Virus record (IMG/VR): IMGVR_UViG_3300047368_000324 | Span: 1 to 64,000 of that record | DNA: 64,000 bases | From: a virus | Strand: one strand, 5' to 3' | Shown here: positions 6,736-61,288 of the stretch, one piece after another | Layout: every line of letters starts with the position of its first letter | Position numbering within the stretch: position 1 is the first letter of the stretch | Made by a program: the position numbers and the translations under genes | Notes under the pieces: generated by a model | Seen by the model: the letters and a program-made list of their open reading frames with translations, nothing else | The model's database searches: none | Told to the model about the DNA's origin: nothing

Positions 6736-7506
6736 ATGCAAATCACACTAACAGAAAAATCAACTCAATTTGAATTAACGAATAGTTTCGATCAACTATT
6801 ATTTCCATTCAAGCAAACGCTTGAACAAGCGAAGGCAGTGCAGAAAGTAAATCAACTCAAAGAAGTTGATCGCTTTTTCAACAATCTTACTCTTCGTCTT
6901 GTCAAAGAAGGTGAAGATTATTGGGCATCGCTCATTCCAAAGAATGATGCAGAAATGTTTGGTCGTTGGGTCTTCGCAATTATGAGCGTTCACACTACTT
7001 GGGAAAGTAATGTGCGTGGATACGAAATCGCAATGAGCGATTTATCATGGACAATTTCTAAAGATGCGTTGCGTGACATGATTGTCAAAGCAAAGGTTGG
7101 TCTTTATGAGCGTAGAGAAAGAGGCTTGTGGGAATTGGCAACCAAGTTCAGAGAAAACCCCGATCAGTTCAAGAAGCAGGATGACGAGACATGGCAAGAG
7201 TGTCGCAATCGTTTGATTGGAACGATCTATGGTCTTGGTAATGCGAAGACAACTTACGCTTTATCTTTGAGCTACCCAACAGAGTCACAACTTTGTTGCT
7301 TAGATGTTCACTTGTTACGCTTCATGGGGCATGACCTCAAGAAAGGTCACGCTAGTTCGCTAGAAGCATATCAAGAAATGGAGAACGAGTGGCTTGCTCG
7401 TTGCGATAAGTACGGAGTATCGCCAAATGTTGCTAGAGAAATTTATTGGAACAAAGTTCAAGGCAGAAGAAACTCACGCTATTGGAGTTACTGCCTCGAA
7501 AAATAA
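6736..7506 (+). CDS. HhH-GPD DNA glycosylase/AP lyase (OGG2-like)
   Basis: HhH IYGLGNAKT followed by LCCLDVHLLRF, similar to OGG2 GIG.KEASHFL...ILDRHILR. Confidence 0.7.
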   Translation: MQITLTEKSTQFELTNSFDQLLFPFKQTLEQAKAVQKVNQLKEVDRFFNNLTLRLVKEGEDYWASLIPKNDAEMFGRWVFAIMSVHTTWESNVRGYEIAMSDLSWTISKDALRDMIVKAKVGLYERRERGLWELATKFRENPDQFKKQDDETWQECRNRLIGTIYGLGNAKTTYALSLSYPTESQLCCLDVHLLRFMGHDLKKGHASSLEAYQEMENEWLARCDKYGVSPNVAREIYWNKVQGRRNSRYWSYCLEK

Positions 7507-13967: not shown

Positions 13968-14002
13968 GTGGGTCAAAGTGGGAGAAAGTGGGTCTGTATG
14001 GG
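13968..14002 (+). promoter_or_regulatory. four (G/A)TGGG boxes at exact 10-bp period, MraZ-binding-site-like
   Basis: GTGGG 13968, 13978, 13988 and ATGGG 13998 in an otherwise very AT-rich intergenic region. Confidence 0.55.
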
Positions 14003-14338
14003 CTACGCGACTTCAATATATATAATAACTAATATAAATATATTCAAATAACAAATGAAATTAAACAAAATAAACAAAATTCTAAATAATATAAATTCAA
14101 AATTGCTTGAAATTAAACTTAAAAATAATTTTAATAGTAAAAATATATCTAATAATTGCGAAATGAAAATTGATAATGAAAATAATTCAAATACAAAGCG
14201 AAATAAATACGGATTTCCAACTTTATTCAGATAATACTGCTCTTTTTAACATATTTTAATTGATTAATATATATTAATTGGTCGCGTTCGCAAGTTTTCG
14301 GTTGACAAGCAAGCGATATTGCCACATACTTATAACAT

Positions 14339-15688
14339 ATGAGCGAATTAACACGAAATATAAATGCTTTGCTAGATGAATATAATGATATTAAACAAGA
14401 TAAATCAATAACAGGCGATTCTATTGAAAATATAATTAGTGATATAAATAAATTAACTAATAATGGATTAAATGTTAATGATATATTCACAAATAACTAC
14501 TATGTTAACGATTATCAAGAGGATAAGCGTTGTGCGAGTGGCAAAATCTTCGGAGTAAAGCAATCATGATTGAATTAGAGACAAATAAACATATAGCACC
14601 AAAGACAGGGCAATATAAACTAGAAATAATTGATAAAACAATTGATGAAATTATATTAATTTATGAAAATAAAAATATAAATGATTTAATTGAAATAATG
14701 AATGGTTTTAGTCTTAATAAATATAGTAGAAGATTAACAGGTAGTGATATGTACTTGTGGGAGACTTAATATTGCATTATATATCAAGCAATAAACGAAA
14801 TTAAGATTGAATTTGAGCCAAATAACTTCAAATAAAGCTATTATGCCATATATACCAAGCATTTATGTCGATAAAACAGAAAAAAATCGACACATTAAAA
14901 AAAAGTGTTGACAAGAGCGACATATTTTGCGATACTTAAACCATGACACAATTACAAAGCACTTACAACACGATCCGCAAGCAACGCGACATTGCGGATG
15001 AGGTATCTAACTTGAGTTCGTACATGAGCGGAAACACAAGCGAGCTTGTGCAACACATAGGCTTTCTAGGAGATAAGATAGAAGACCAAGCACAAATGAC
15101 TAATGGATATTTAGATGATATAAGATCATCAATAGATAAGAATACAGAAGCATTACAATTAATAGCTAGAATTTTACAAAATAAATAATAAATTTAATAA
15201 CATTAATAAATATATAATTATGAGTATCGCAAAAAACGCAAGAGCATCAGAAGTAATGAGCAAAGTGCAGAATGGACACTACGCTAGAAATGGAAAGTTT
15301 GCAAACTTCGGTTCTATCCCCGAAGATAGCATATATTACCACACTTGGTTGGCACAGAAAGCCGAGCAGAAGCAAAAAGAAAAAATGGCTCAACGAGCAA
15401 TCAGATCGGGGGTTCGTAGTCATGCCTAAGTATGCAGTATTTGTTAAAATGGTTCACCTTGGCAAGTTTGTTATCGAGGCAGAAGACGAAGAGCACGCAA
15501 GGCTTATAATGGATTCGGGAGAAATTGCAGATGATGAATGTGTGGATATTCAGTCGGTAGAGAGCGAGATTACGACTATTGAACTTGCTGATAAACCACC
15601 ATTTGAGGGTTTTGAATCACCTAGAATACCCGAAGACTTTGAGACAATGACCACTGATGGAGAAATAATAGAAGATAATAAAGAATAA
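14339..15688 (+). CDS. five short hypothetical early genes (last probably starts at 15422, acidic)
   Basis: TTGACA promoters at 14302 and 14908; packed ORFs. Confidence 0.6.
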
Positions 15689-15789
15689 TATGGAAATAAT
15701 AGTTGCATCACTTTTAACTTGTTTTTTAAATAAAACAGTAATATATATTAAACCAAACCAAGAACAAATAATTTATACAGAAAATACTA

Positions 15790-15875
15790 TTGACAAATAA
15801 TCAAATATATAGTATTATTAATACATAACAATTGAGAAATAAACTCAATCAAATAAAATAAATTGATCTTTAACA
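15790..15875 (+). promoter_or_regulatory. sigma70 promoter, hairpin and boxA-like antitermination leader
   Basis: TTGACA 15790, 17 bp, TATTAT 15813; hairpin attgag/ctcaat 15831-15849; TGATCTTTAACA 15864-15875 versus rrn boxA TGCTCTTTAACA. Confidence 0.7.
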
Positions 15876-15882
15876 TTTTAAA

Positions 15883-16305
15883 TTTTGAGCATAGATCTCG
15901 CAAGCATTAAGTTGCTAAAAGCCAATTCTTGTAAGTCTCAATTCACTTTGGAACAATGAGTCGATAGCTGAGTATCGGACATTGACTCGTTCCATTCTAT
16001 TTGGAAGGGCTTATAATCCTTCCTGTGGGTGACTCGAAATAACCTGTCGTGAGCGGGTTAAGGTATGCAGATCCCTGTGGTAGGGACGGTAGAGTCCAAT
16101 CGGATGAGCCGAATGACAAATGCCAAGTCTAGTCTGTAGTTCGAAGTAGGTAATCCATGAACTGATGTTCACGCCGAAAAGTTGAAGGTATACAGTAGTC
16201 CTTCCCCACATTTATTTTTACAGGCAAATATGCGGAGGTTGTGTGTTGCCTCTAGTGACTATCATCGCCTGTTAGGTAACTCAATAAAAGCCTAACGCTC
16301 CAAAA
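15883..16305 (+). ncRNA. large structured non-coding RNA, family not recognised
   Basis: GC-richer, no credible ORF; ends pair (ttttgagc / gctccaaaa); helices ggaac..gagtcgat/attgactcgttcc, ggaaggg/tccttcc, tgtggg/cccaca, taacctg/cgggtta, tccct/aggga, tcgg/ccga, tgaac/gttca, gaagg/ccttc, caggc/gcctg, gttagg/cctaac; own promoter and terminator. Confidence 0.72.
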
Positions 16306-16335
16306 GCCCCCATCTTTCGAGGTGGGGGTTTTTTT
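16304..16335 (+). terminator. intrinsic terminator
   Basis: aagcccccatc-tttcga-ggtgggggtt followed by a T run. Confidence 0.85.
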
Positions 16336-16372
16336 GTTTGACAAGATCGACCACCTAGTCTACTATGGTAGC

Positions 16373-16884
16373 ATGAACACATTAAAAGACATACTATCAC
16401 ATTTCGGATACATTAACTCGGCTCAGCTCGCAGAGCTTAACGAACACTTTCCTCACATGAGGGTGGTTATTAAATGGGGCGGATTGCCTCGTGAACGAGT
16501 TCCTGTATGGCAAGCAATTGAAACCATCGAGAGAGTCGAACGAGAGAACCTTGACTATTGCAGAGAGGTATTTCTATCTGCCAAGGATTGCAACAATCTT
16601 CGTGAGGCTTTACATATAACCACTAATTAAAATATATTATGAAGTATCAAGCAGAACATAGTGCAGTTGAATTAGGTCTATTAGATATAGATGATAGAGT
16701 ATATGATAATGAACATAGAATGGATTATGCTCAAAAACAAGAAATACAAAGTAGAGTTGAATTAATTAGATTATTATTGAAAAGAAATTTACCTCTAAAA
16801 GCTAAACAACAATTAAAATTCTTAGATAGATATATTGATCAATGCTTATATAATGATTATATGGTGAATGACTATTTATCTTGA
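16373..16884 (+). CDS. two hypothetical proteins (16373-16630, 16639-16884)
   Basis: TTGACA at 16338 puts the start at ATG 16373 rather than GTG 16322. Confidence 0.6.
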
Positions 16885-16915
16885 CCTTTATCTTAATCTT
16901 AATTAGTATTATACT

Positions 16916-17491
16916 ATGATAAATCCAGCAGAAGTAACTAACTATAATCGAACTCAATCTGAATTACAGGAGTTTTTATTATTTTGTATTAATGTCGCAG
17001 GTAAAAAGTCTGCAGTCGAGGCTCCAAAACTAGAAGTCTTCCTCGAAAGAGCAAAAGATATCTCTGACACAGATTCTCCATTTGATGCTCTTCGTGCTCT
17101 AGAAAAAGCTGGCAGACTACAGGAGGTGCTTCATTGGGCGTCAATTAGCCCTTACAAGCAACGCTACAACAGCTACAAGGATGTTCTTGCTCTAGGAGAC
17201 CTACAAGCAGTTACTCTCGCCCGCCTGATGCAGGTGCGAGGTGTTGGACTTAAAACCGCACGATTCTTTCTATCTCACAGTCGCGAGGACTTTGATGAGC
17301 CCATGCTTGACACACATATTCTTCGCTTCCTTAGGGATCAGGGTTACAGAGACGCCCCAAAAAGTACCCCTCAAAACCAAGGAATCTACAACTATTACTC
17401 TAATGTATTTAAAATGTTTGCTCGTACACTTGGCAAATCAGTTACTGATTTGGATTTAGAAATCTGGAAGCAATACTCAAAAACAGAATAA
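16916..17491 (+). CDS. second HhH-GPD DNA glycosylase-like protein
   Basis: HhH LMQVRGVGLKTARFFL, PMLDTHILRFL, C-terminal DLDLEIW. Confidence 0.75.
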   Translation: MINPAEVTNYNRTQSELQEFLLFCINVAGKKSAVEAPKLEVFLERAKDISDTDSPFDALRALEKAGRLQEVLHWASISPYKQRYNSYKDVLALGDLQAVTLARLMQVRGVGLKTARFFLSHSREDFDEPMLDTHILRFLRDQGYRDAPKSTPQNQGIYNYYSNVFKMFARTLGKSVTDLDLEIWKQYSKTE

Positions 17492-17642
17492 ATTGGAACT
17501 ACTAATAATCATAACTATGGGTACAGTAATGGGCGTGAAGCTAGCATTCGAATCTTGGAATGACTAAAACGCCAAATACGTAAATGACAAATATGGAAAT
17601 ACCAAATAACCAAATAATATATATTCAGCAGAGAGCGCCGCC

Positions 17643-17721
17643 CAACACCCTGAACATCAACGACTTATGAAATTTTCGCCTAGTCTGAGAATCTCGTAAG
17701 TCTTTAAGAAGCAAGGATTTA
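17643..17721. repeat. arm-core-arm element, copy A (core CCTAGT 17679; left spacer 11 bp)
   Basis: caacaccctgaacatcaacgactta-tgaaattttcg-cctagt-ctgagaatctcg-taagtctttaagaagcaaggattta. Confidence 0.8.
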
Positions 17722-17777
17722 CAACAAAAGTAAAAAAAGTGTTGACAGCAAGCAGTCTGTAGGTTAGTATTATATAC

Positions 17778-18981
17778 ATGATTAATTACGATATACCAAA
17801 CTCAATCTCACAATTTCAATCGAAAGCTATGTTGGAATTTTCCCATCTTGATTTCAAGCCACATCGTCATGCTGACGGAGTTCAAGCTGTGCTTGAATTG
17901 GGTAATGACATCTCGATTTCTGTCGTTGCGAACAACGAAGGAGGTCAAGGGCTTTATGGTAATCTCAAGGAGGATCTTTACGAAGTTGCGTTTTTTTATA
18001 AAAATGATATGATTCCTCTTTCTCCTTCCGATGATGTTGTGGGATGGCAATCTCCTCAGCAGATTTCTTATCTAATGATGAAGGCTCAATCCGAGGGTAT
18101 TTATTGGGTGGATGAACTTCGAGAAGCAAAAAGAGAATATAGAAAAGAATTAGGGCTTGACAGCTGAGCACTATTAATCTAGTATTATATCATGACAACA
18201 GAAGAAGAATACAGACAAAGAGCAGAAACAGTTTTAAACATCGTTAACGGCAATCTTGCATGGTCAAATCCAAGTTCAACAGTTTGCCTTGACCAACATG
18301 AGCGTCATCCCGAAAAGTTCCCAAAGGGAAGTGCATTTCAATCGTTCGATGAATCTTTAGATGACATCATTCGAGACTTGACATCCTATAGAGATGAGAC
18401 TAGAATAGAATCATCTTTTCAATCAGCAGAACTATAACCAACACACACTATGTTAACAAACGAAAAACAAATTGCAGAGTTTAGACTCCGCACTCTCCAT
18501 AAAATGCTCAAGCTTGAACTTCTTGGAATGAAACGCAGAGGTCAATCGGCTTACGCTATCATAAAACAAGAAACAGGTTTTACAGGATCAAAGCAAAAAG
18601 TCTATGACAAACTTGATGACCTGCTCAACCCTCCTGCTCACGATGTGGAAATGGAAAAAGCAATTTATAATGCTTGACATTTAATTCAAACTATATTATA
18701 TTTATATCATGTTAGATTATATTGAAGCAAACTGCGAATTACCTTCGCTTGAAGACAAAGCCTCCTACGACCAAGAATCGGGAATGTGGGAATTATATTT
18801 CGAGGAGCTTTTGCCCTCTTGGTACAATCGGAGCGAAGGCGAGCATCCTGACCTCATCACTTTACATTTCGAGAGCGAACACGAAGCTCAAGAAATTCTT
18901 AATCAACAATCAACAATCCTCAACAAAAGGAATCAAGAAAATGAAGTTAGTTCAGAAAATCAAGAACCTGTTCTCTCCTAA
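17778..18981 (+). CDS. four hypothetical early genes
   Basis: TTGACA at 17742, 18157 and 18674, each 35-36 bp before an ATG. Confidence 0.7.
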
Positions 18982-19171
18982 GTATCAAGTCGTCTATCGC
19001 ACGCTTGACGGCAGAACAGAACGCTATACCATCAACAAACCATCATATGCTTATGAATTTGGCAACAATCAGGAGGGCAAGCAAATCGTTGGCTTCCGTT
19101 CTTATTGTCATAATCGCCACGGAGTGCGTTCATTCCGTTACGATAGAGTCGTAGCATTAGAAAAGGCATAA
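18941..19171 (+). CDS. stand-alone WYL-like domain protein
   Basis: VVYRTLDGRTERYTI...FRSYCHNRHGVRSFRYDRV fits WYL Y....G..t.R.i ... aYCh.R...R.FR.DRi; likely start ATG 18941. Confidence 0.6.
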   Translation: MKLVQKIKNLFSPKYQVVYRTLDGRTERYTINKPSYAYEFGNNQEGKQIVGFRSYCHNRHGVRSFRYDRVVALEKA

Positions 19172-19345
19172 TTATATGACTGCATCATCACTTAAAAAAC
19201 AGATTCGTCAACTTGGCTACGAGCTAATGCTTGCAGAGGTAACAGAATCTTATTGCGAAGAATTCATTGAGAAGAGGAAATTGCACGACTCTCTACTTGA
19301 GAAATTATATAAGTTAGAGAAAAGAGTTTTCTGATTCTACCCTCC

Positions 19346-19425
19346 TAAACCACTATCCCCCAATGACTTGGGGGATTTTGGTCCTAGGCCCGCCGTGCCG
19401 GAAGTCTATGATAGAGAAGCACTTA
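19346..19425. repeat. arm-core-arm element, copy B (core CCTAGG 19383)
   Basis: taaaccactatcccccaatgacttg-ggggattttggt-cctagg-cccgccgtgccg-gaagtctatgatagagaagcactta; overlaps a terminator-like hairpin atcccccaa-tgac-ttgggggat. Confidence 0.8.
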
Positions 19426-19803
19426 AGTAACAAAAAAAATGTATTTATTAGTCATTTTATAGTTGCAATTTAAACCCGTTCTGTCATACTTATATGTATG
19501 ATAATTAATGAAGACTACCAATCAGATGAAAACCCTAGTGCTGAACTCGTTGTCGAGGCGATCATGGATCAAATCTCTGACATACTTATTCAACCTATGC
19601 ACGAAAAACTTACTGCTGAAGATCAACTTACGCTTGGTCTTGTAGCAAGTGCCTTAAAGGTATTAGGCAAGAAAGCTCAAGCTTACGATAATTTACAAAA
19701 CGGAGATTTACCTCTCGATTGGCAAAATTAATGCTTGACTTTTTATATATATTCACTTATACTTATATTATAACAATCAGATAAACCCAAACTTAAAAAA
19801 ATT

Positions 19804-20601
19804 ATGTTAGATACAACTCAAGAAACTCCTCGTCTTAACCTTCGCATTTGCGGTAACCGATCAACCATCGTTGACATGGATGCCGTTCGTAGAGTGCCAA
19901 CTCCACAAGCAACCAATCGCTGGAAACCTATTGCTCACTCAAAAGTTGTGGATACAACTCGAAACACTCTTGAAGACAAAGGTTTTGAAATTCTTAACGA
20001 ATGCCATAATGTGACCAAAGGTGGCGAGCATTACTTTGGAATGTTTCAAGTCAATCATGCTGACCTTTCCGATAATGGTGGCGAGCGTGGTTGCGTTGTG
20101 GGCATGAGAAATTCCCATGACAAACTTTTCGCAGCAGGTTTGTGTGCAGGTGACGCACCATTCATCTGTGACAATCTTATTTTTCACAATGAAGTTGTAT
20201 TTACTCGCAAGCATATTGGCGATGTTCATGGCGAACTTATTACGAGAGTGAACAAAATCACCGAGTACTTAATCCCTATGTGGACTCGCCAAAATGATCG
20301 AGTGCAAGCTTACAAAGACCTTGCCGTCAATGATCGAGAAGCCCAACATCTTATTTTCGATGTTTACGAGGCAGGAATCAAGACCAATTTGATTGGTAAA
20401 TCCATGCTTGCCCAAGCTTGGGAACAATGGAGAAGTTCTGACCACAAAGTTTTTCAAGATCGAAATCTCAATTCATTGTACAACGCATTCACGGAAGTAA
20501 GCAAAGGCAGAAATGTTATGCACTTGCCCAAACGATCTGAAATCTTTCACAATGCTTTTGATCCTGTCGCAGGGGTTGAAGAGGTTGAACTCGTAGCTTA
20601 A
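19804..20601 (+). CDS. DUF932/DUF945-family protein
   Basis: WKPIAH, GMRNSHDK...GLCAG...FICDNLIF...RKH, SLYNAFTE. Confidence 0.75.
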   Translation: MLDTTQETPRLNLRICGNRSTIVDMDAVRRVPTPQATNRWKPIAHSKVVDTTRNTLEDKGFEILNECHNVTKGGEHYFGMFQVNHADLSDNGGERGCVVGMRNSHDKLFAAGLCAGDAPFICDNLIFHNEVVFTRKHIGDVHGELITRVNKITEYLIPMWTRQNDRVQAYKDLAVNDREAQHLIFDVYEAGIKTNLIGKSMLAQAWEQWRSSDHKVFQDRNLNSLYNAFTEVSKGRNVMHLPKRSEIFHNAFDPVAGVEEVELVA

Positions 20602-20875
20602 TTTTAACACTAAAAACAAAGGATATATATTATGAAATGCCGTAATCTCAACGAAGTACTCGATTCACGCAAAGGACGATTTGTTTCCGTCCTTCTCAAG
20701 AATGGTCTGAAGCGTGAGCTTTATTCAGCTAAAGTTCACGACTATAATTCTAAAGCCGTCCGTTTCCGTGACACTAATGGGGGCGAGCGTAGAGTTGAAC
20801 GCTCTATGATTGTCAGGGCTAAGGTTGCCGAGCGTTATTTTAAACGCTCAAGGAGCTGACCAAAGCCCTCCTTCA

Positions 20876-20905
20876 AAAACCCTTGGGAAACCAAGGGTTT
20901 TTTTT
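20876..20905 (+). terminator. intrinsic terminator
   Basis: aaaacccttgg-gaaa-ccaagggtttt plus T run, directly before repeat copy C. Confidence 0.85.
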
Positions 20906-20911
20906 GTGCCT

Positions 20912-20991
20912 TAACCTATTGTAGGTCAATGACTTACGGGCCGGCAACCCTAGGGAAATTAACTCGCAAGTCTTTGATTATCAAGCGTTTA
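20912..20991. repeat. arm-core-arm element, copy C (core CCTAGG 20949)
   Basis: taacctattgtaggtcaatgactta-cgggccggcaac-cctagg-gaaattaactcg-caagtctttgattatcaagcgttta. Confidence 0.85.
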
Positions 20992-21035
20992 AAATTAAAT
21001 GTTGACATTGAGTTCTTATCTGTTATTATATAGTT

Positions 21036-21437
21036 ATGATTAGAACAAAACCAGACTCTCGCTACGACATCGACTATGACCGCAAGGTGTTCGTATATAA
21101 AAATCTTCACAAGAATTGCTGGAGCATTCGCCAGGACGGATTGGTTAAGGCTCATTCAGATGGGTCTCCAATCTCTATATATTCAGCGGTAATGAAAGTT
21201 AATCAAAAAGGTCGTGAGCGTGTGATTCGAGAAAAAAGTAAGAATGTTCATGCCGGTATCTTAGGTTACATCCGTCACGAAGATTTGAAAGTATGGGATG
21301 GATGGGTTGACATGATCGAAATTACATACAATCCTTACAAGTATCATTCTTTTGTAGATGTCGAAAACAAGAAGACAAGATACTTTGCTACTCTTTGCAA
21401 ACTTTATCAAGATAAAGTTTTAGTTGAGCGTTATTAA
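21036..21437 (+). CDS. conserved phage hypothetical protein
   Basis: VYKNLHKNCWSI...V...GRERVIREKSKNVHA...TYNPYK pattern. Confidence 0.7.
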   Translation: MIRTKPDSRYDIDYDRKVFVYKNLHKNCWSIRQDGLVKAHSDGSPISIYSAVMKVNQKGRERVIREKSKNVHAGILGYIRHEDLKVWDGWVDMIEITYNPYKYHSFVDVENKKTRYFATLCKLYQDKVLVERY

Positions 21438-21475
21438 GGGTTGACAAGTTAATTTATTTTTATTAGTATAGTATC

Positions 21476-22216
21476 ATGATTAAAACAACACTTCTCACAT
21501 CAGGTAATCAAAAAATTCTCAAAGGAGAAAAAATGGGTTACATCACAAAAGGTATTCATCTTGCTCCAGCAAATCTTGCGGGCTACGAAGTTTGCCAATG
21601 GCGTTCAAAAGGATGCACCGCTTCTTGTCTCAACACAGCAGGTCGTGGGCAAATGAATTCTGTTCAGCAATCACGAGTTGCCAAGACAAAACTATTCTTC
21701 GAAGAGAAAAAAGATTTTATGTACAAGTTGTGCAAAGAAATTGCGTCAACTATCAAATCCGCAAGCAAGAAAGAAATGAAAGCAGTTTTCCGCCTCAATC
21801 TCACAAGTGACATCGCATGGGAAGGTGTTTACATGAAAGATCCAAACTATAACATTTTTGAATACTTCTGTGGCGAGCAATTTTATGATTATACAAAGTC
21901 ATTCAAGAGAATGTGTGCTTTTCTTGGTAAGCCATTCGCCAAAGACGAGGTAAAATTTCCTTCCAATTATCATTTGACTTTTTCTCGCTCGGAGAACAAT
22001 GATAAGAAATGCGAAATGGTTCTTGCTATGGGTGGCAATGTTGCCGTGGTGTTTCGCAATCAACTTCCCAAAACTTGGAAAGGTTACGAAGTCGTCAATG
22101 GCGATGATACTGACTTGCGTTTTCTTGACAAGCGAGGTGTCGTTGTTGGTCTTATCGAAAAAGGTATGGCAAAGAAAGATGCAACGGGATTTGTCCAAGA
22201 AGGTATTGACTCTTGA
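21476..22216 (+). CDS. Gp88-like protein (Cys-rich)
   Basis: CQWRSKGCTASCLNTAGRG, FRLNLTSDI, FYDYTK, NYHLTFS, GDDTDLRFLD. Confidence 0.7.
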   Translation: MIKTTLLTSGNQKILKGEKMGYITKGIHLAPANLAGYEVCQWRSKGCTASCLNTAGRGQMNSVQQSRVAKTKLFFEEKKDFMYKLCKEIASTIKSASKKEMKAVFRLNLTSDIAWEGVYMKDPNYNIFEYFCGEQFYDYTKSFKRMCAFLGKPFAKDEVKFPSNYHLTFSRSENNDKKCEMVLAMGGNVAVVFRNQLPKTWKGYEVVNGDDTDLRFLDKRGVVVGLIEKGMAKKDATGFVQEGIDS

Positions 22217-22523
22217 TTCTAAACTGATATAATTATATTATGAAAAAAACAAAATTCATCTTAACATTATCAAGCGACAAAATTCCACTCATAGCCGAAG
22301 TATGTGCTTTAAGAGTATTAGAGAATGATGAAAAAGTATTAGGCAAAGCTTGCGTAGAAGCTAATGTAAAGTCAAAAAACTTTATAGATATAACACGAAA
22401 AGCTAATTATAGAGAAGGAAAGTTATATGCTTACGCGGAGTATATTTAGAATTGATAATTTGCTAAATAGAAAAACGAAATAGGTAAATAGTAAATAGTA
22501 TATTTTTATCAATGAAAATTCCA

Positions 22524-22603
22524 TAACATTTTTATTATCAACGACTTACGTAAGTGGTCGCCTAGGTTGAGTTTTGCGTAAGTCTCTAAGTATCAAAGAT
22601 TTA
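22524..22603. repeat. arm-core-arm element, copy D (core CCTAGG 22561), at the +/- strand switch
   Basis: taacatttttattatcaacgactta-cgtaagtggtcg-cctagg-ttgagttttgcg-taagtctctaagtatcaaagattta. Confidence 0.85.
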
Positions 22604-22906
22604 AGGAGGGGCTTTCTGCGACGCAGTCCACCCCTCCCAACCCGATGATTAAGATAAAGTAGGATAGATCAACTCTTTAAAAACACAAGCGATACCGAAT
22701 CCAGCCAAAAGAATAACTAATTCCATATTTAGTTATTTATAATTTGCATAGCTTCGGCATCCCAAATGTCTATAATCCTGCTAAGGATCCATGCTTGGCG
22801 TTTTTCTGTGCGAGCTTTTTTCATTGTCTCGGTAATGCGTTGAAGTCTTGGTTGTGGTTTATTTAATTCTGACATGATACAACTATAAGGGTTTTAATTT
22901 TAAAAG

Positions 22907-25900
22907 TCAAGCGAAAAGAGGATGCAATTTTACATCTTCGAAACGAATCCCAACCTTGCGGTCGGTGCGATACGGGCGAACCATAGCGATGGTGCCAAGC
23001 TCTTCGTGCTCGGTAGCTTGGATAAATTGAAAGATTTTATTATCTCGAGAGATAAGCACATCACCTTTTTTAAATTTATTTTTATCTGACATATTATTTT
23101 TTAGTGTTGGGTTACTACATTAAAACGAGGAGAGTTTAGATTCTCTTCTCTTTCGATTGTTCTAAGGTATGAAAGACTTGACGCAGTCCGAACCCGTGGG
23201 TATTCAGTTCCTGTGTCGAAGATCTTAACAGACCAATGCGTTGACCATTTTTTGATTCTAACTTGTATTTTATCTTTAATCATATAACTACTATCGCATA
23301 TAAATTCAGAAATTGCAAGAAAAAAGTGAAAAAAGATTCTTTTATTTTATTGCACTATTCTGTTCTGACTAGTCGGCAGATGCCGTAAGTCTTTGGCTAT
23401 GTGCTACTTAGAACACAAGAGCCTCGACATTTTGATTTGATACGGCAAACCAATCGGATGGATTAATGATATGACCATTTAGTACAGGCTCAAAGTTGAC
23501 CTGACTTACTCCGGCATTGACTATTCCATTTACCCGCTCGCGAGTTGTTGGAGTGTTCCAGCCAGCCAGCGACCATATCACAAACCCGCTTGCGTCACGC
23601 TTGATTATAGCGTTCCCATGCAACCAAACGGTGTTACCGTCCGTGCGAGTGTTGCCAACTGTCAAAGGTTGGCGAGATTCAAAAGCTTGTTTAATTTGTT
23701 GTGTTACTTGTCTCATTATTTTATATTAAGCATTATCATTTGGTTTTGCAAGCATAAACTTCATAAAAGTTTCTTGAGCTTTTAGATTGTCTTGGATCTC
23801 ATCAAGCTCAATCTGTGCGTTAATTACCATCTGCTGACTTTGGATGTGCCCCGCTTCTGCATTTGGTGTGAGTACTCGAATAAGTTCTTTAAGCTCTTTT
23901 ATTTTATCCATGGTTTGAGAGTATTGGAGTTTGTGTTTTGATTTGTAATTGCTTTGCCTTTTTCATGGCTTTAGCGTGAGTCTTTGCGTTATCTACGAGT
24001 TTTCCAAAGAGGCGAATATCGAACCAGTTTGAAAAGTTTGGGTTTTTATCAACATTAATCATAAGTCTTATTATGCAGTTTTGAGTTTAAATGTCAAGCG
24101 TTTCTTTCAACTGACTTCCAACCATAAGCTAAAACTTTGTCATTATAGCGAGCTTGTGAAAGCATAGCCTTAAGGTCAGAAATTTTTGCATTGATCCAAT
24201 CAATTTCGCTTTGATCCATTTTACCTTGCCACATTGCAAGTTGGTTTTTTTCTATTGCGATTTCGTTTTTTATTTGTTCTGTTGTCTTAATCATATTTAC
24301 AATCTATTCTATTTTTTAGTAAAAGTCAAGTTTTATTTTACTTTTTTTTAGCTATTACAAAAGCTAAAAGAATTTTTTCTCTTTCGGTGAGTTGTGTTTT
24401 ATTAATCTTTATCATATAAACAACATAGCAAGAAAATCGCTAAAAGTCAAGAACTTTTTTAATTTTTTAAAACTTTTTTTCTATTGTAAGTCTTTGATCT
24501 TTAGAGACTTCCGGCACAGCCGGCCTAGGCCCGTAGGCCCGTAAGTCCTTGATTACCAAGGCGTTTCGTCTTCTTTCATGTCTTGCCACATGAGGTAGAA
24601 TACTACAAGCCAAGGAGAGAATAGGATAATTTCGATCATAATGTTATTTTTTGCGTTGTTCGTGCAGTACGGTTTGAAACTTTTTGCGAGCTTCTTGTAC
24701 TGCGTGGAGAGCGTCGAGGATTGCCATGCCCTGAGTAATGCTCAAGGTTTGATCTCCTTCAGTGTTGCTCGTTTGAGCGAGGAAATTGAGATTTCCTTCA
24801 GCTTTAGAAAGTGCGAGTCCCAAGTCAAGTTCGGGAAAGTCCATTTTTTTTGATTCGTTCATATTAGAGAGATATTCTTGCACCTGTTCTGATTGGCTCG
24901 CGAAGATCTTGAGCTTGAGATTCAAGTTTGCTTGCGATTCTCATTGCCTGTGCGTGAGATTTTGCGTTATCAACAAGCCTTCCGTCAAAAAGGATGTTGA
25001 ACCATTTAGTGAAGTTTGGGTTTTGTATTATCTTTATCATGTAACTAATCTATAAAAGTTTTTGGTAAAAGTCAAGTTTTATTTTAATTATTTTTCAAAA
25101 ATTCTATTAATGTAGTAGCTGTAATCCTCGCCAAAGCTGAGGTGAGATTGTAACTCACGCACACGCTTGGCAACTTGTCGCCGTACTTCATGCTTATCTT
25201 TCGCTTGGTATGTTAACACATGATTGGTGCTTTCCATCATTACTTGGGAATTTGTGTTTGTATTAAAGAAGGGGAGCTTGCCACCTCCAATTGAACTGAC
25301 ATGGATATTTGCGGTGAATGTTTTATTTTTAATCATAAGTTTATTATAGATTTATATTTTAAGAAGTCAAGACCTATTTACTCGTATTGTGAGTGGAAGC
25401 CCCAATCAATGTCAGGCTGCTCGTCGAACTCTCTCAAGGATAGCTCGTCCTGTAGCTGCCCAAGCTCATTGCGTATTACAACGCGTTGAGAGTCGCTAAG
25501 TATGCACTCAGCAAGAGCGGTTTGTAGTGTTAGTATTTCTCTCTCTATTTCTTTTGTTGTCATATATACAATGTAACATATTATAGCTAAAACACAAGCC
25601 TAAAATGCAACTATTTTATTACATTATTATGTTATTGTAAGTCATTGTTTATTATAGACTTAGGGCACGAGCGGCCTAGGCCTGCCGGCCCGTAAGTCTT
25701 TGATTATTAAGCGTTTAGAACTCGTCCATCAAAAGCTCGTCCAAGGCGTATGTATCAAGCTCGGGGTCTTGGTAGTTCGCACCATCAGGGGTATGAAGCG
25801 TGCCTGATTCTACTAGGAAATTGGCTAGATCTTTGTAGTGCACAAAACGCCTAGCTAGCTTGTATAAGCTCTCATCGTTGCCTAACCATAGGGCCACATT

Positions 25901-26413
25901 CCATGTTTCCCAATTCGCCCAACCGTTGTAACCTTCCATTATTTGACCTTGGTTAAACGGTAACGGCGACGCTTGGACCCTATGTTCCGGGCTTGGCGTG
26001 CACGGAGCAAAGCTTCGGCCTGCTTTTTGTATAGAGGCATGGACTCAATTGTCCAGCCTGTTTTATCTGAGAACGGTATTGATTCTAGTATGAACATATA
26101 TTCCTTTGATTAGAGATTAAACTTCGAAGATTTCACGCATTGTACCGCTGACGCAATCCATATCTACAAGACTTTCGTCATTGTCAAAATCTTCGTCCTC
26201 TTCAGCCTCGACAGAATCAAGAGAAGTAAATTCATCCTCAATGTCACGCTCGGATGCGTGTTGGATGCCATGCTCAAGAGTAAACTCTTCATTGGCGATT
26301 TCTTCCTCGATGTCCGAGAGCAGTTCAGCGAAGCGACCTGTAACTTTGTTGTTGTTTGCGTTAGCAAGTTCAACGGCTTTGGCGATTAGAGCGATATTAT
26401 TTTCGTTATTCAT
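22907..26413 (-). CDS. run of short minus-strand early genes (incl. 23408-23716, 25715-25939, acidic 26117-26413)
   Basis: Minus-strand TTGAC/TTGC promoters ~35 bp before ATGs; 25715-25939 has YNGW.NWETW...LW..NDE and 23408-23716 has LHGN.I...GW.T.TT..R, both common phage patterns. Confidence 0.7.
23368..23410. repeat. half element, copy E (core ACTAGT plus right arm)
   Basis: actagt-cggcagatgccg-taagtctttggctatgtgctactta; left arm not recognisable. Confidence 0.6.
24487..24566. repeat. arm-core-arm element, copy F (core CCTAGG 24524)
   Basis: taagtctttgatctttagagacttc-cggcacagccgg-cctagg-cccgtaggcccg-taagtccttgattaccaaggcgttt. Confidence 0.85.
25638..25717. repeat. arm-core-arm element, copy G (core CCTAGG 25675)
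   Basis: taagtcattgtttattatagactta-gggcacgagcgg-cctagg-cctgccggcccg-taagtctttgattattaagcgttta. Confidence 0.85.
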
Positions 26414-26635
26414 AGTTTGTATATTATAGTATTATAGAGTGATTGCAAGAAAAAAGTTTGATTATGCGAAAGTTTTTTTATGCTTTGCTTTGCGTGGAAG
26501 TACTTTGTTTCTAAGCTTGTGAGGTCTTGCCTTTGTGAAGACTATTGGCATTCGTACTTTTATCTTATTCATATAAACAATCTAACACATTGTACCGAAA
26601 ACACAAGAAAAAAATTCAACTATTTTACTGCACGA

Positions 26636-31483: not shown

Positions 31484-34400
31484 ATGGGTTCTAGCGGATA
31501 TCAGATTAACGAACTCGAAGGAGGGTATTCTCCAACAATTTCTGAGAAAGGTATTGATATATACGGAGGTCCCAGGGGTTCCTTGGCTGGAACGCTTCCA
31601 ACATGGATCGCGTGGTGGGTTGCGAATTACAGATATACTCCTGGACATATCGTATACATGCCTGGCGTTTACAACGCAGATGGCAGCAATGGAACTTACT
31701 ATGACACCAATGGGATGTCCTCAAGGAGGGAAGAGATTGCTTACTCTCAGGACATTCAAGCTGTAAACCTTCAGGAAGGCGGAGACCTTGTTGGTGGAGA
31801 CATGGGACGCGCCGGAAGTGAATATTCTACTGGGTCGAATAAAAGGCAATATTTTGAATACGGTGCACATACTTTATGGGTTAAATTATTTGGCGAACCA
31901 GATAATAGTTCAACTAATGATTCTTCGCTGTTAACTGACCAAGACTTTTTTAACGTTACAAAACGAAGACGAAATGGATGGTATTGTTTTTATGAGTTAA
32001 TGAGTGAAGTTGACCCTCAGGGCAGTGGCCAGCTTGAAATTGCTTTTCCTCAAGGAAATAGTGTGAACAATAACACTTGGAATAATACAAAAAAAAGATA
32101 TTCTATCGTTGTTGGCAATAAAGAGACCTTGAAAGTGGTCTATGGCTCTTGGGGCGAGGATTTATTTAGACAAATTTCATGCGAACCAGGAAGTACAACG
32201 GAAATCAAAGTTAAGCATGACGAGACAGTTTTAAATATGTGCGATAGTTTTATTTTATTCGCCGCTGTAGTTGCTGCGAATACGGGTGGTGATTTAGATT
32301 TAATTAATTTTGTCGTTTGTAAAAGTGTGTTAAGATCTTCTGGCACTATTGAGCAAAATTTAGAAACTTCTCCTGTTGAAGTTGCAATTTTACCTTCTGA
32401 TAAAGTTTCAATTGGGGGTAATGTACTCAGAAGTCCTCAAGAGGTTCCGGTTAGAGATATGGTTGACCCCAGTTTTAATGGGAGTTCTGATTTCTTCCAA
32501 GACGAAAATGGGCAAGATGAAACTGCGACAATGGTTTCTGCAGGCTACCCTGGAGTATTAAACCCAGAATCTATTTTTCGTGCAGCGCAAAAATCTAGTG
32601 ATTTCGATGGTACCATAACAAGAATAGCTCAAGGAAACACGGCGGCTAGCGAGGTAATAATGAATGACGCTGACTTAGATGACGACCATTTATATCTAGA
32701 CAAACTAAAGTTTGGCAAAGTCCCTGCATATGACCCTAGGTTTGGAGAAGCATCTAGCTCATTAAATAGTTTTATTAGTTCTGTCTATAATTTTTCCCTT
32801 CCGATGTCTACTAGCTCAAGTATTGATTTCTGGCAATCTGGCCAATTTTACAAAGTAGGCAAGGCTGTTAGGTTTTCTCCGAATCAGTCTGAGTATTCAA
32901 AATCCGAAGCAAATCGAACGATTAAAGATGTCATATGGGTAAGTAGAAAAGACCATGCTTCTACATCAAGCAATAAGCCTCCAATGGGGGCGGGGTCAGG
33001 TATGCCTTCTGATTTTGAAAATGAATGCTGGAGATCTTATGGAGTTTTGGCTAATCAACCGAATTCATCATTGTTACAATTGAATGATGTCTACAGGGAT
33101 TCGGAAGTTTTTGTTGGAGGTTTAATTATCAATAAGTCTCCAGATGAAATCTTATCAATAAGTGGTGAAATGGTCGACCGCGCTCTACTTGGTTCCGAGC
33201 GAAGAATTAGAATGTCTGAAATGACAGGAGGTTCTAGATTATATGCGAGCTTGACTATATCTCCTGCTAAAAAGTTTAAAGTCAAATATTACAGAAAAAG
33301 AAATAGTTGGGGCAGACGTTCTAGCGTAACGTTTAGATTTCCGCCCGCAGTAGAAGATGCTGCGGCTGCAGATTTATGGTTATATGCAAATAATTTTAGA
33401 AGAGATCACGCGGGTTCAATAAATTTTGCCGTAACTTTTGTTACGCATACGAGTTTTGTATGGGCTCAAGCGAAGAAACGCAGGAGCTCATTTTTTGGAA
33501 TCTTATTGGGTGTTGCATTGGCGGTTGTTGGCATTTTGAATCCAGCGCTGTTTTTGACCGCAGGAATGCAGTGCGCAGCATATGGCTTCGGGGGAGGTTT
33601 AGCGCTGGGAGCCTTAGGTGGAGCTGTTGGGTTGGGCGTGGGCACCGCATTAGGCGCTAGTGCAGAAGCTGTTTATGCCAACTTGGGAAAAGGGGTTGGC
33701 CGAAAAAAAGCTTTCACAAGAAGTTCTTTCTCTCAAGTTATTAGTAAGATTGCAAATGATGCTCCGTCCGCAAATTATGTATTAGATAGAGGTTCCGCTC
33801 CAGAAAATGGCATGGTTATTGGACGTAATAGCTCAGATGTGTCAAGTATGTATGATACTAATCTAGGAGGTAGTAATGCAAATGTACAATCTGAAAATGA
33901 TATAATTCGTTTTAATTTTGGTAACCTTTATCCATATTTATATGAGAGTAAATATGGTAATACAATTCATGTATCTGGTCAGTATCAATTTTTAATACAA
34001 GACTTAAATTCTGCTAGCGCAATTAAGATTGCTTTTAATTATGAGGAGATAAGTCGTAGAGGTGGTAGGGGCGCCGTTGATAGCTTTGGCAATACATTTT
34101 CGGGGTATCCAGCTGGGACACCCGAAGGTAGTCATGCAGGCGCAAATTCAACGCTATGGAGTCAATATCGAAATGCCGCGAATGAGATTGTAAATGGTAA
34201 CGCGAGTAGTACTGGTAATTTAAAATTAATATCTACTAAAAACTATTTTAATTATTTATTAATTGGACCCGAAAACATAAGAGATGATTTGGACCCCTTA
34301 AAAGCTTTGGTTATGTGGTCAATGGATTTGAGTGACGCTCAATTTAGCGCACTAGTCGGCATGATTCAAACAGGCTTTCGAGATTTAACATTTAACTCCA

Positions 34401-37400
34401 GCGGTTCCTTTTCTGATCAAGATGGGCTTAGTGATTATAAGGAAATTTATACATCTAATCCACCTATAGCTGCTGCAGAAAATGTAGCAGCCACAGGTTA
34501 CCAACTAGAAATATCAAACAATACCATAACACACGTTAAGGAGGATAAAACAAACGGTCGGAGGGTAAAAATCCTTAAGAGCGTTGGCGAATCCCAGGGA
34601 ATGAGCAGAGAAGATATGGAAGTCTTGGCTAAAGGGCTTGCTCCTGGAGAATTTTTGCTTGGAAAAGATTTAGAGAATTCTACGCCACAATATATAAACT
34701 TTTTAAAATCTTCAGCTCTTTCTGGAGCGAAAGAATGGACTTCAATAAATAACGGAGTTAAAATAAATGGCGGAGACGTCATACAAAATGGACAAGATTT
34801 TTACTTTGTTAATGCAACCTTTATCAAGAATAATCAAAACCTATCTGACGTTGCGACTTTAGTTCCAAGATCTTCTTCTCAAATATATACCGCCGATTCA
34901 TTCTCTCCGAGTTTAACACTGGTTAAACAATGGCAAAAAATGCTTGAGTCTCCATATTATACCGAGCAGACAAATGACCGTTCTGCCTCTTATTACCTTG
35001 CGGGTAGGAAGTTAGACTTTTCTTTCGTTGTAAAAGAAAGTGCAGACCCTTCTTTATTTAATCTATTTTTCTTTGGATTCTCGGATTATATTCCAAATTT
35101 TGCCTCAGCAAATATGGATACATATGAAATTGATAGCGTTGCCCAGCTACCGATGATTAAAGATTCAAAGGATTTGACTGGAGATTATATTGGTAATGGA
35201 TCAACTCAATTTGTTCGTGACGATGCAACTTATACTACTAAACATGTTTTTAGATTAAAAGACAATATTCCTCGAACAGCAGAGCTTCCTGTTGGCGCAA
35301 TCCCTGGTTTTAAATCAGAGCTTTCTTGGGAGTACTTAGGTTCGCCTTCTGATCTTACTCCATCAGTCATATCAGAATGGACGCTACCTGTCTTGAAGGA
35401 GACTGTGTCAGAATTTACTCCTGGGCAGGATGTTATAGCCACTAATAAGTTGCGCCCATTAGGTTTTTGGAAATCAGAGGCGGGCACCAAACTTTCTGGT
35501 TCGAGTATTAATGGAATAATCGAACAGCAAGAGTTTTCGCTCACGGTCAACTTCCCATGGATTAAAATGACCAGCGCGCCTAGCGATTCGACTGCTCAAT
35601 ATGTTACAACTCAAAACAAGGATGGATCTACCGTATATTTACTTTCTCCTTATAGCAAGGTGTCTGGGCAGACTTCTGGAATTAATTTAGCAGCATTTAT
35701 ACCCTCGAATATAAATGACACATGGAAGGGGTTAATGAACAATACTATTCTAAGTAGTTCTCAGACCAATTATATACTTGACGCATATCTTACGAATAAA
35801 CTTGACATATTAAGAACTTTTGAAGTTCAAGGTTTTGAGGTTTCTCATATTCAAATTGTTATTTCACCTATTACTGACTTAATCGATAAAATTGAAGTTT
35901 GGGATCCTACCGCAAATTACTCAGAAGGAGATGTTGTTCTCGTGCATCATACGAATTATAATTACCTTTCAGAAGAAACAGGTAAAATGCAAGCGGCTCA
36001 AAGCGAATTTGGGAAATTATGGTTATATGCAAGAGCCACGCGAACTATTACAAATGGAGAAAAACCTTTTCATAACGATAATCCAGAGCCTAGTGCTGCT
36101 CCAGGCAGCATGGGGGAATTGGGCGAAGTAATATTACCTGTCGATACAAAATATTGGGAATGCTGTACTGCAAGAGAAGGTTCTACTGTAGACAGTATAA
36201 CAAGCGGATTGGGCGCAAAAAAATTAGCAAAATCTTGTTACGGAACCGATTTAGACGTCAAGACCTATACTGTTTCGATGGGAGAAGCGGATACGTTTAC
36301 GCAGCCAGGCAGAAGCCAAAAAACTACCGAAATTTACATACCCCAACAAAGAGGAATTTACAATAAAAATGTTTCTATGGATTTTAGTTCCCCTAAAAAT
36401 TTAATTTTTACAACAACAATATCTCCTGAAGCTAAAATTGTTGGACGATTACCTTCAAGCGCCGTGGCGTATACAAATGAAGGAGGAACCTGGCCTGGAA
36501 CCCTTAACCAGAAAGATACGCAATATCTTGAGCCTAGTGATTATGCAAATTTATACGAAGAGAATCCTTTGATTAATTTATTTTTAAGAAGAAGCGTTAA
36601 TGCTGGGGCAAGATGGAGTAATTGGATTGATGGAATCATGACGAGCGGGCAGGATGCTGAAATATATAAAAAGATTACATACTCTCAAGGGGATGAATAT
36701 CAAAAATTTGAGACAATGCCTACTGTTGAGCTCGCTGTATCTAAGGATTCTGGAAGTACTTTTGAAGAGTTCGTTGCTAAAAGAGAATTTGACGAAAACT
36801 ATCCAGTTTTTCATAAGGGTTTTGATATACCAGTCGGAATTAAGGCAACGATATCAAATGCGCTAGGTATAAATGACAGCCCTTCTAATTCAGTTGGATC
36901 AAATTTATATGGCTATATAAGCTGTTTATATAACCCAGGAACAGAAGTAGTAGGTGGAGCGTCAGGTTTAATAAATTTTATTGGAGAAGGGACTGGTTCA
37001 GAAAACGTTAAGTTAAAGAATTGGAGTGGGACAGATATAGGAAATTCTACTGCGGCTGATTTTTATGAAACTATCGCCACAGATGATGAAAGTGGGCTTT
37101 TGCAATACGGACCCCAAACTATATCAGACGAACTAACTTTACATTCACTAAATGGAATCAATCGAACGAATTATACACCAGCATTTAAAATATTTCTTCC
37201 TGAGACATCAAGTTCAAGGAATCCTCTTGATCTGTGTGTTCAGAAATGCGTATTAATACTTGGAACAAGAGACTCAAATGACGGCTTGACACACAACCGT
37301 ACAAAAATTAAAAACTTCGTATCTGGAAGTGGTATAGATTTCCATTTTGATAACTGGTTTGCTATCCCCGCTGGACAAAATTCATATGTAGATCAATCCG

Positions 37401-57307: not shown

Positions 57308-58807
57308 ATGAGTAATACAAAGAAAAACAAAAAGAGCACTTCTTCTAGAGCAAAAAGTTCTACTAAAACTAGCTCAAGAAAGAAAACACCATTAGAAGAT
57401 CTTCAACAAACAAATGGAAAACTATATGAGCCTACAGTAGATCAGGTTCGTAAATTAGAAGAGATTTTAGAAGTTAAAAAAACAAACCCATTCGGCACAA
57501 ATGATCTTAGAATTTTCGAAGAAAATGTTGCGTCAATGAACTTGACGGATATGCAAGAAGTTGCCGTAAGAGCCGGAGTATTTCCCAGCGGCAATCGAAC
57601 TGTTTTAAAAAATAAATTAATTAAAGCTTTTAAGGCAGAGGGTTTTGGCATTAACAAAAGCGTAGTTGAGTCAGATCACCAGGTTACGCTCGATCCGAAA
57701 AATAAAAAACATAAAGAAATAATCGATTACTTGAATAGTTAAAATGATCACTCTATCTTCTATTGCAGAATCAATCTTTGATGCAGAGTTCTATTGGAAA
57801 GCAGAACTTAAGGACACTAGGTATTCCACTCCAGAAGAAGAAAGGGAAAAGGAGATATTAATTATAGCAGATTGGCTTGAGGCGCATATAGGAGAGTTGA
57901 ATATAATGATTAATACTCATTTTGAAGCAGTAGATGGCGCGGTAGATTTTTACGAAGAAGAGTCAGCCATACTTCGAGAAATGTATATGATGAATTACTA
58001 TCGAAAGCAAGGAAGGAATATGCTTAGGCAATTAGACGGGTCCACCGCGACCGCGACATTTAGCTTTAAAACCATTCGAGAGGGAGATTCAATGATTACT
58101 GCACCTTCTATGTCAGAAAACCAAGCTGTCGCCAGAAGTTACCGTTTATTAATGAATGATTCTAGGCAAGCAATAGAAAAGCTGGTCCATAATTATAACA
58201 TGTATAGATCTAAGCCGAATCAAGTTTCGGGAGATGATGTAAATTAATTTTTTTTTGTGTAATATAACCTATGGAAAACGAACAATCTAGACAAATTTAT
58301 TTCAAAGAAGAAAACGATGCGGATTCTTATGATGTACGCATGTATAGATCCAATCTATTCCAAGCTGCTAAGAATGCACAAAAAATCTTTGATTATCTTG
58401 GGGACGGAGTAGAGCTAGAGGAATGGATGAAACAGCATATCGTTTCCGCTTCAGAGGAGCTTAATCAAGTTAGGCAAGCCCTAGAGTATAATAAAGAATA
58501 TCCAGAAAAAGCAGAATCTCTTCCCGAAGAAGAAGAAGTTGAGAACAATTATCTATCGAACGAGGATAAAAGATATCCTATGCCGCAAGAATCTGAAAGC
58601 AGCGAACAATTCATGACAAGATGCATATATGATGCTAACATGAAAAAAAGATACCCTGAGCAGGGAGATCGCTTTATGGCTTGCATGCTAATATTAAACG
58701 GACCTAACGAAAACGTTACAGATAATCCTGGAGAAAAATTTGAAGACCCAATGGACCCTGCAAAAAAAGATATTCCGCTAGATCCTCAAAAACCTATACT
58801 GCCTTAA
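57308..58807 (+). CDS. three late genes (57308-57742, 57744-58247 possible head-tail adaptor, 58271-58807)
   Basis: Follow the capsid gene; GTGTA motifs at 57281 and 58257. Confidence 0.6.
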
Positions 58808-61277: not shown

Positions 61278-61288
61278 ATTGAATTACA

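Follow-up and report, generated by a model that had tools for sequence, protein, structure and literature searches.

Repeated elements in the early region of a marine phage contig

The window analyzed here covers positions 1 to 64,000 of IMGVR_UViG_3300047368_000324, a viral contig of 76.6 kb in IMG/VR, from an uncultured marine phage that belongs to a group with genomes of about 200 kb. Within this window, two arrays of small genes meet, one on the plus strand (to 22449) and one on the minus strand (from ~22650). Distributed among these genes is an element of about 80 bp, present in six full copies and one half copy that we refer to as A through G, all located in the 17.6-25.7 kb interval of the contig (Table 1).

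Each full element has two outer quasi-palindromic arms of 25 bp, and each arm, TAAGTcgTTGA-N3-TCAAcgACTTA, is a dyad of two 11-bp half sites. Inside the arms lie 12-bp spacers, fixed in length and variable in sequence (53% alike among the window copies), on either side of a CCTAGG-type core. A preliminary description of this stretch had listed the seven copies and had drawn their arms and spacers in the same way, and that account was borne out here, including the 11-nt left spacer of element A. The pattern GACTTA-N12-CCTAGG-N12-TAAGTC, with at most three mismatches, matched five times in the window against 0.02 expected (inner-site starts 19365, 20931, 22543, 24506 and 25657). The sequence CGTAAGTC occurred seven times against 0.76 expected, every time inside an element, and profile searches of the whole 76.6-kb contig found arms confined to 17.6-25.7 kb. 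The hexamer CCTAGG as such was not enriched, with 10 occurrences in the window and 6.3 expected.

The region that contains the elements is rich in promoters. Approximately 17 sigma70-type promoters (TTGACA-17-TAnnnT) are found on both strands in 16881-26606, and the ATG follows the -10 box by only 3-10 nt, so that most of the early genes are apparently translated from leaderless mRNAs. Six of the seven copies have a promoter 10-40 bp away from one of their arms, those at B and E being read from sequence alone. On the minus strand, the left arm of F is 36 nt from a promoter (TTGACT at 24450), and that of G is 40 nt from another (25597). Separate terminators stand before B and C, and the left arm of B overlaps a terminator-like hairpin at 19357-19379. 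Two minus-strand open reading frames (ORFs), 23408..23716 and 25715..25939, have as their TAA stop codon the outer TTA of an arm, in E and G, respectively. The elements lie at boundaries that fall after stop codons or terminators, before promoters, or between convergent units. The earlier statement that they usually follow a stop or terminator and precede a promoter needs correction for element D, which is at a convergent junction and free of a promoter. The promoter is a unit separate from the element, as approximately 11 promoters in the region have no element. The proposal that the elements partition the early genes into cassettes did not survive this count: there are approximately 17 promoter units and seven elements in 16.8-26.6 kb, and therefore the elements do not delimit single cassettes.

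Table 1. Element copies and adjoining signals in the early region (window coordinates; the last two entries were read from the sequence).
Feature	Position	Strand	Description
Element A	17642-17721		Core CCTAGT between spacers of 11 nt (left) and 12 nt (right); left arm degenerate, right arm at 17697-17721; inner site 17662
Element B	19346-19425		Degenerate left arm, CCTAGG 19383, right arm 19401-19425
Element C	20912-20991		Both arms, CCTAGG 20949; two perfect WATCARNNNNTTR matches in right arm
Element D	22524-22603		Convergent junction of plus- and minus-strand gene arrays
Element E (half copy)	23368-23410		ACTAGT core 23368, 12-nt spacer, one arm 23386-23410
Element F	24487-24566		Both arms, GC-rich spacers, CCTAGG 24524
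Element G	25638-25717		Both arms, GC-rich spacers, CCTAGG 25675
Leaderless sigma70-type promoter downstream of A	17742-17780	+	TTGACA-17-TAGTAT, ATG 17778; 20 nt from arm end
Leaderless promoter downstream of C	21002-21038	+	TTGACA-16-TATTAT, ATG 21036; 10 nt from arm end
Terminator-like hairpin with T run	20877-20906	+	Intrinsic type; directly upstream of element C
G/C hairpin	22604-22638	-	Closes the minus-strand array and abuts D

The element family in related phages

The exact full-element pattern had no match in IMG/VR outside IMGVR_UViG_3300047368_000324, and because of this we reached relatives through their proteins, taking from 54 contigs the loci around the gene for a 246-aa GP88-like protein (21476-22216 in the window). 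A first regular expression for the arm, allowing two mismatches, performed no better than its control and was dropped; detection in the relatives relied on a half-element profile followed by an arm profile. When the genome and its relatives were scanned in this way, the family was detected in most of the 54 loci. It takes the form of arm doublets in dozens of related IMG/VR contigs, and a perfect consensus arm is present in more than 20 IMG/VR contigs. Among complete relatives (184-211 kb), arms are restricted to a single region of 10-20 kb. A blastn search with the consensus element gave no match in a cultured phage, and we found no paper describing the family.

The family consensus for the 25-bp arm is (C)(G)TAAGTcgTTGAtatTCAAcgACTTA(C)(G). 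Start-to-start spacings of the arms fall into classes of 42, 46-47, 50, 52 (the commonest) and 55 bp, and the distance from arm to arm, 30 bp in the window, is 17, 22, 25 or 27 bp in relatives. The 55-bp class is found only in the window and in the nearest relative, L085. The spacers are GC-rich with a consensus specific to the class: CGSSGGSCNGSCCSSCG for class 42, and CGnAAAAnCssCywGGGCgkTTTkCCC for class 52, the center of which corresponds to the CCTAGG of the window. Spacers of class 42 are modestly homogenized (0.79-0.94 identical within genomes compared with 0.72 between genomes), whereas for class 52 the likeness within a genome does not exceed that between genomes. Half spacers of the GC-rich and AT-rich types are assorted independently. 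The polarity of the spacer had no association with the direction of the promoter in class 42, and class 52 offered too few cases. In a survey of half copies, nearly all of the apparently single arms had a degenerate partner, which left no usable sample of breaks.

In L085, the flanks of the elements share 80-85% identity with the window. Of the seven elements in L085, five are orthologous to those described here, in the same positions and with no positional polymorphism. The hexamers at the core position in L085 are CATAGG, CCCAGG, GCTAGG, CAGGGG, CCTGGC, GGGGGG and CAGGGG, so that CCTAGG is found in none of the seven. The core in the preliminary description is not kept in the elements of the nearest relative. 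In L086 (6241-15457; GP88-like protein 93% identical), variant inner half sites, AATTAtATGA in place of TAAGTcgTTGA, are found in eight copies, and the outer half sites, TCAAcgACTTA, are unchanged.

Arms as duplex sites phased to the promoter

We asked whether the halves of the arms vary together, using approximately 200 unique arms. At the variable pairs 6/20, 7/19 and 8/18, the Watson-Crick fraction was 0.42, 0.47 and 0.62, compared with 0.47, 0.42 and 0.63 in column shuffles. There was also no covariation between arms (inner half of arm 1 against inner half of arm 2). The halves of the arm thus vary independently, which argues for a symmetric protein site in duplex DNA and against a selected RNA or DNA hairpin. 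We conclude from these comparisons that the arms are double-stranded dyad sites, with a protein as their inferred ligand, and are not hairpins.

The distance between arm and promoter is quantized. We collected doublets that had a recognizable leaderless promoter within 120 nt and collapsed them to 35 sequence clusters. Across the relatives, the gap from the end of the promoter-proximal arm to the start of the -35 box has peaks at 20, 30/31 and 40/41 nt, with minor classes about 3 nt shorter than these, and the Rayleigh statistic is maximal at a period of 10 bp (R 0.60, p~3e-6). In the window, the gap is 20 nt for A, 10 for C, 40 for G, 37 for B and 36 for F. Quantization in steps of 10 bp is expected of an upstream architectural or activating factor; random insertions and deletions in a homologous module would not give it.

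The positions that are kept suggest the kind of protein involved. The consensus for integration host factor (IHF) is WATCAANNNNTTR, i.e. WATCAR-N4-TTR, and each half arm contains TCAR-N4-TTA, the core of that consensus. The family logo reads C16 A17 R18 ... T23 T24 A25. Positions common to all of the arm variants are YAA-N4-nTGA, i.e. TCAR-N4-TTR, and the variant inner half sites of L086 keep only the IHF-type positions. Because the positions shared by the variants coincide with the IHF consensus core, the ligand is most likely a sequence-directed DNA-bending protein, either an IHF-like factor of the host or an unrecognized phage protein that bends DNA. Perfect WATCARNNNNTTR matches number 18 in the 64-kb window against 14.6 expected, and six of the 18 lie within ~325 bp of arms.

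A proposed DNA-bending protein at early transcription-unit boundaries

We favor a reading in which each element offers two docking sites to a DNA-bending protein and marks a boundary of an early transcription unit, and in which the elements serve in addition as homology patches for cassette exchange similar to that of promoter-early stem-loop (PeSL) modules. In our judgment this combined reading stands about evenly between right and wrong. The two arms of a unit, each a dyad of 11-bp half sites, stand a fixed distance apart with a mostly GC-rich spacer between them. The unit follows a stop codon or terminator and precedes a strong leaderless sigma70-type promoter, or else lies where two units converge, and its promoter-proximal arm is in helical register with the -35 box. 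The bound protein would probably bend the upstream DNA, with stimulation or insulation of the early promoters as the result. The elements and the repeated promoters may also act as passive patches of homology at which co-infecting relatives swap early cassettes, in a PeSL-like manner. The preliminary description had named binding sites for a phage or host protein as its alternative, and it is this alternative that the absence of hairpin covariation, the IHF-type core and the helical phasing to the -35 box favor. The anatomy, the phasing, the missing recombinases and the lack of selection for a hairpin are observations; from there, we infer which protein binds and how its binding acts on transcription.

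Several observations weigh against this reading. The element is present at only about seven of the approximately 17 promoters of the region, and element D has no adjoining promoter. B (37 nt) and F (36 nt) belong to the minor phase class. At arm spacings of 47 or 55 bp, the two arms do not lie on the same helical face. The conservation of G4/T5 and A21/C22 in the arm exceeds the requirements of E. coli IHF, an estimate that is biased by the seed pattern. No protein of the HU/IHF family is encoded by the phage or by four complete relatives. No DNA-binding Pfam domain (helix-turn-helix [HTH], ribbon-helix-helix [RHH] or other) was found in the approximately 45 ORFs in or beside the early region, and therefore a phage-encoded ligand would need a novel fold. 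Finally, an RNA motif and a phage gene family described below hint at a cyanobacterial host; cyanobacteria have HU and are not known to have a classical IHF.

A reading that we regard as unlikely, though worth keeping in view, is that the elements are operators of a phage-encoded global regulator with an unrecognized fold, which would bind the dyad arms and, as at mycobacteriophage stoperators or KorB sites, silence or block early units later in infection. The dyad symmetry of the arms, their four conserved blocks and their lack of hairpin covariation are as expected of operators, as are the phasing to the -35 box and the location of the sites at unit boundaries, one of which (D) is free of a promoter. 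In addition, variants of arm and spacer are partly specific to the genome (the L086 inner half site in 8/8 copies, and the class-42 spacers), which fits co-evolution with a phage protein. The equal likeness of class-52 spacers within and between genomes does not share this pattern, however, and the absence of HTH, RHH or other DNA-binding domains from the approximately 45 ORFs in or beside the early region leaves no recognizable candidate for the regulator. The position of the sites is also unfavorable: they lie 10-40 bp upstream of the -35 box, which is usual for activators and architectural factors, and not over the promoter as repressors do.

It is improbable that the elements are selfish miniature mobile elements, comparable to miniature inverted-repeat transposable elements (MITEs), REPINs or bacterial interspersed mosaic elements (BIMEs), that spread through the intergenic DNA of phages. 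They have the look of such elements, being inverted pairs of palindromic arms with a set linker length, extragenic, directly after stop codons and in many copies, and the modest within-genome homogenization of class-42 spacers could be taken in the same sense. Against this, the phage genomes contain no RAYT/Y1 transposase, target-site duplications were not seen, and a search of 185,579 species genomes with the perfect arm returned nine single, unrelated matches and no multi-copy family in a host. Moreover, the window copies share length but not spacer sequence, orthologous copies occupy the same places in L085, and the helical phasing to promoters points to a selected function.

We assign a small probability to the reading that the elements act as single-stranded structures, whether as RNA hairpins (terminators, or processing or stability sites) or as extruded DNA-hairpin promoters of the kind that an injected RNA polymerase uses in N4-like phages. 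In its favor are the 11-3-11 quasi-palindromic form of the arms, the tolerance of the right arms of C and G for G-T pairs on the plus strand, and a 3846-aa ORF of the contig that has the size of virion RNA polymerases. The GC-rich elements F and G do fold better than shuffled sequences (z -3.6 and -3.2), whereas A, C and D have no advantage in folding over shuffles (z 0.13, 0.01 and -0.73). The approximately 200 unique sites have no compensatory change within or between arms. The arms are not followed by a T run and are not called as terminators, the scan for terminators having returned one weak hairpin only, inside the right arm of F, and Rfam has no family that matches the elements. The elements serve both gene orientations as well as a convergent junction, and the giant ORF has no Pfam match to an RNA polymerase.

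Cassette turnover and the proposed crossover sites

The preliminary description had proposed that the elements are site-specific crossover sites, with a symmetric CCTAGG core and accessory dyad arms, that excise, invert or reorder early cassettes. We consider this very unlikely. Its appeal is that sites resembling those of bending proteins, held at a fixed distance around a short symmetric center, recall sites of the attP type. The half copy E retains CTAG at the exact core position with everything to the left lost, which is a single observation, and the independent assortment of GC-rich and AT-rich half spacers is also compatible with exchange at the center.

Comparison of the window with L085 provides further examples on both sides. 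The two sequences are collinear in 14000-22603, ending at the last base of D, unrelated in 22604-23381, and collinear again from 23382, at the arm of E. Two block ends thus fall at elements D and E. From 24.0 to 25.6 kb the comparison is a mosaic, and in the region as a whole block ends against L085 fall at D, E and F. Other block ends lie in plain promoters (18672/18673 and 24065/24069), and a cassette at 24069-24356 that is found across F in L085 has both of its ends within promoter repeats.

In the larger set of 194 locus pairs, the 140 elements account for 78 block ends (0.56 each), compared with 150 at 532 promoter-only boundaries (0.28 each). Because the element is a target about 1.5 times wider than the promoter, we see no special enrichment of block ends at elements, and junctions at promoter-only boundaries are about equally frequent; the remaining 613 of 841 block ends are at neither elements nor promoter-only boundaries. 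Inversions are nearly absent. Reverse-oriented matches make up 116 of 12,639, and every one inspected was a single DUF7249-like cassette of ~220 bp. This cassette, joined to G in the window (25715-25939, -), is on the opposite strand in L103 (12732-12982), L106 (1725-1950) and L111 (6977-7196).

Known enzymes of site-specific exchange are also missing. Tyrosine recombinase (PF00589), serine recombinase (PF00239) and Y1 transposase (PF01797) are absent from the contig and from four complete relatives, in searches with positive controls. The earlier remark that no recombinase is visible in the window therefore extends to the rest of the contig and to these relatives. Because the spacers beside the core vary, with no conserved recombinase-binding site, no sequence-specific recombinase could bind there, and the core itself is absent from all seven elements of L085, the five orthologous ones included. 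Turnover of early cassettes is real, and the sequence comparisons fit homologous exchange at any conserved intergenic sequence, plain promoter repeats included, as has been described for PeSLs (PMC2839356); they do not fit a dedicated crossover site.

A related proposal, to which we give similarly little credence, is that the twin IHF-like arms and the GC-rich symmetric center form an attP-like nucleoprotein complex, in which an unrecognized nuclease or recombinase of phage or host would cut and rejoin at the center of the spacer. The scars of such a process would be the half copy E, in which CTAG is kept and the sequence is replaced exactly leftward, and the independently assorted half spacers. 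If this were true, abundant marine phages would own a dedicated shuffling device for early genes of host takeover and anti-defense.

The phage, its contig and its relatives

The contig has a G+C content of 35.7% and an estimated completeness of 58% by CheckV. Its genes include rIIA, rIIB, DNA ligase, a T4-type large terminase, a ClpB-like ATPase and a DNA polymerase III (Pol III) alpha subunit. Cultured close relatives were not found by megablast of the region, and the best tblastn matches to the large terminase (TerL) were only 24-27% identical. Related phages are nevertheless very abundant in ocean metagenomes, where the terminase has over 2,400 relatives at E<=1e-30. The contig closes with a tandem duplication of ~100 bp (76416-76615, beyond the window), and because of this we believe that the assembly probably broke in a repeat.

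A few other genes merit mention. The 3846-aa ORF at 31484-43024 (+) is comparable in size to the giant virion proteins and virion RNA polymerases of N4-like and crAss-like phages; a Pfam search with it gave no match of any kind. The ClpB-like double AAA+ ATPase adjoins the DnaE-type Pol III alpha polymerase at 58794-63844 (-), which is unusual replication and chaperone equipment for a phage. Two paralogous ORFs, 6736-7506 (+) and 16916-17491 (+), have sub-threshold matches to the Ogg-HhH family of 8-oxoguanine glycosylases (E 2e-5 and 5e-5). The early cassettes at 21036-22216 (+) belong to families named after mycobacteriophage L5 (gp82-like and GP88), and near them is a Kyanoviridae Gp96-like gene (23408-23716, -), a mixture of widely travelled phage accessory genes.

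With respect to the host, a full-length match to the manA RNA motif (RF01745) is present at 16003-16214 (+), with a score of 73.6 bits against an Rfam gathering score of 55.2 (E 1.8e-17). The manA motif is known from marine metagenomes and cyanophages, and it is this motif together with the Gp96-like gene that hints at a cyanobacterial host. The window contains no tRNA genes that could serve as a clue. The perfect-arm matches in species genomes were considered for the same purpose and rejected, as the nine are single and unrelated (Fibrobacter, Akkermansia and others).

Comparison with known systems

The closest parallel for the arrangement as a whole is found in T4-type phages, in which PeSL cassettes combine a promoter with a true stem-loop terminator and are exchanged by homology between one PeSL and another (Arbiol et al. 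2010, PMC2839356; Comeau et al. 2014, PMC4122927). As in that system, the modules described here are intergenic repeats, and the small ORFan early genes around them form a hyperplastic region; where a promoter adjoins, the order is stop codon, conserved motif and strong sigma70-type promoter; and close relatives differ by the insertion, deletion, replacement and relocation of cassettes whose ends lie in repeats. The differences are that the motif here is a rigid pair of 25-bp dyads with a fixed-length spacer and phasing to the -35 box, with no selection for a hairpin; that only about seven of approximately 17 promoters carry the unit; that the genes are leaderless, whereas those behind PeSLs are led by Shine-Dalgarno sequences; and that this phage has no close cultured relative.

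The BIME and RIP-RIB elements of enterobacteria pair palindromes of the repetitive extragenic palindrome (REP) type with an IHF site, and they have been proposed to be architectural or topological boundary elements. They too are extragenic, placed right after stops at the ends of transcription units, and composed of inverted palindromes with defined linkers and an IHF-type consensus. In BIMEs, however, GC-rich hairpin REPs flank a central IHF site, whereas here IHF-like dyads flank a GC-rich center, and the present elements have no RAYT, no family in host genomes and no hairpin covariation.

IHF assists the phage early promoters lambda pL and Mu Pe, and there are other upstream activators that depend on the face of the helix; all of these act from single sites at single promoters. 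The similarity lies in a putative bending-protein site upstream of a strong early promoter at helical-turn steps, and the difference in a twin-site module that is repeated at many unit boundaries, one of them promoter-free. Mycobacteriophage stoperators are asymmetric sites of 13 bp that follow the direction of transcription and have a known repressor as their ligand. Like stoperators and the KorB operators of plasmids, the elements would be many copies of one putative protein site dispersed intergenically in one segment of the genome; unlike stoperators, they are symmetric twin dyads with no evident repressor gene. With attP, integron attC and dif they share a short symmetric center, accessory sites at a fixed distance and stop codons in the outer box, and they differ in that no recombinase was found, conservation of the center does not extend across relatives and the sequence on either side of it is variable.

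The early region of this abundant phage group is a site of turnover for genes of host takeover and anti-defense. That a rigid twin-site module is phased there to promoters of host type suggests that a DNA-bending protein organizes and boosts the first transcription units. The ligand, if identified, would provide a handle on host identity and on early gene control in an uncultured lineage, as well as a compact and portable promoter-boundary part. By analogy, the mechanism that we propose resembles IHF-assisted promoters in its putative action on transcription and PeSL-type shuffling in its putative role in cassette exchange.

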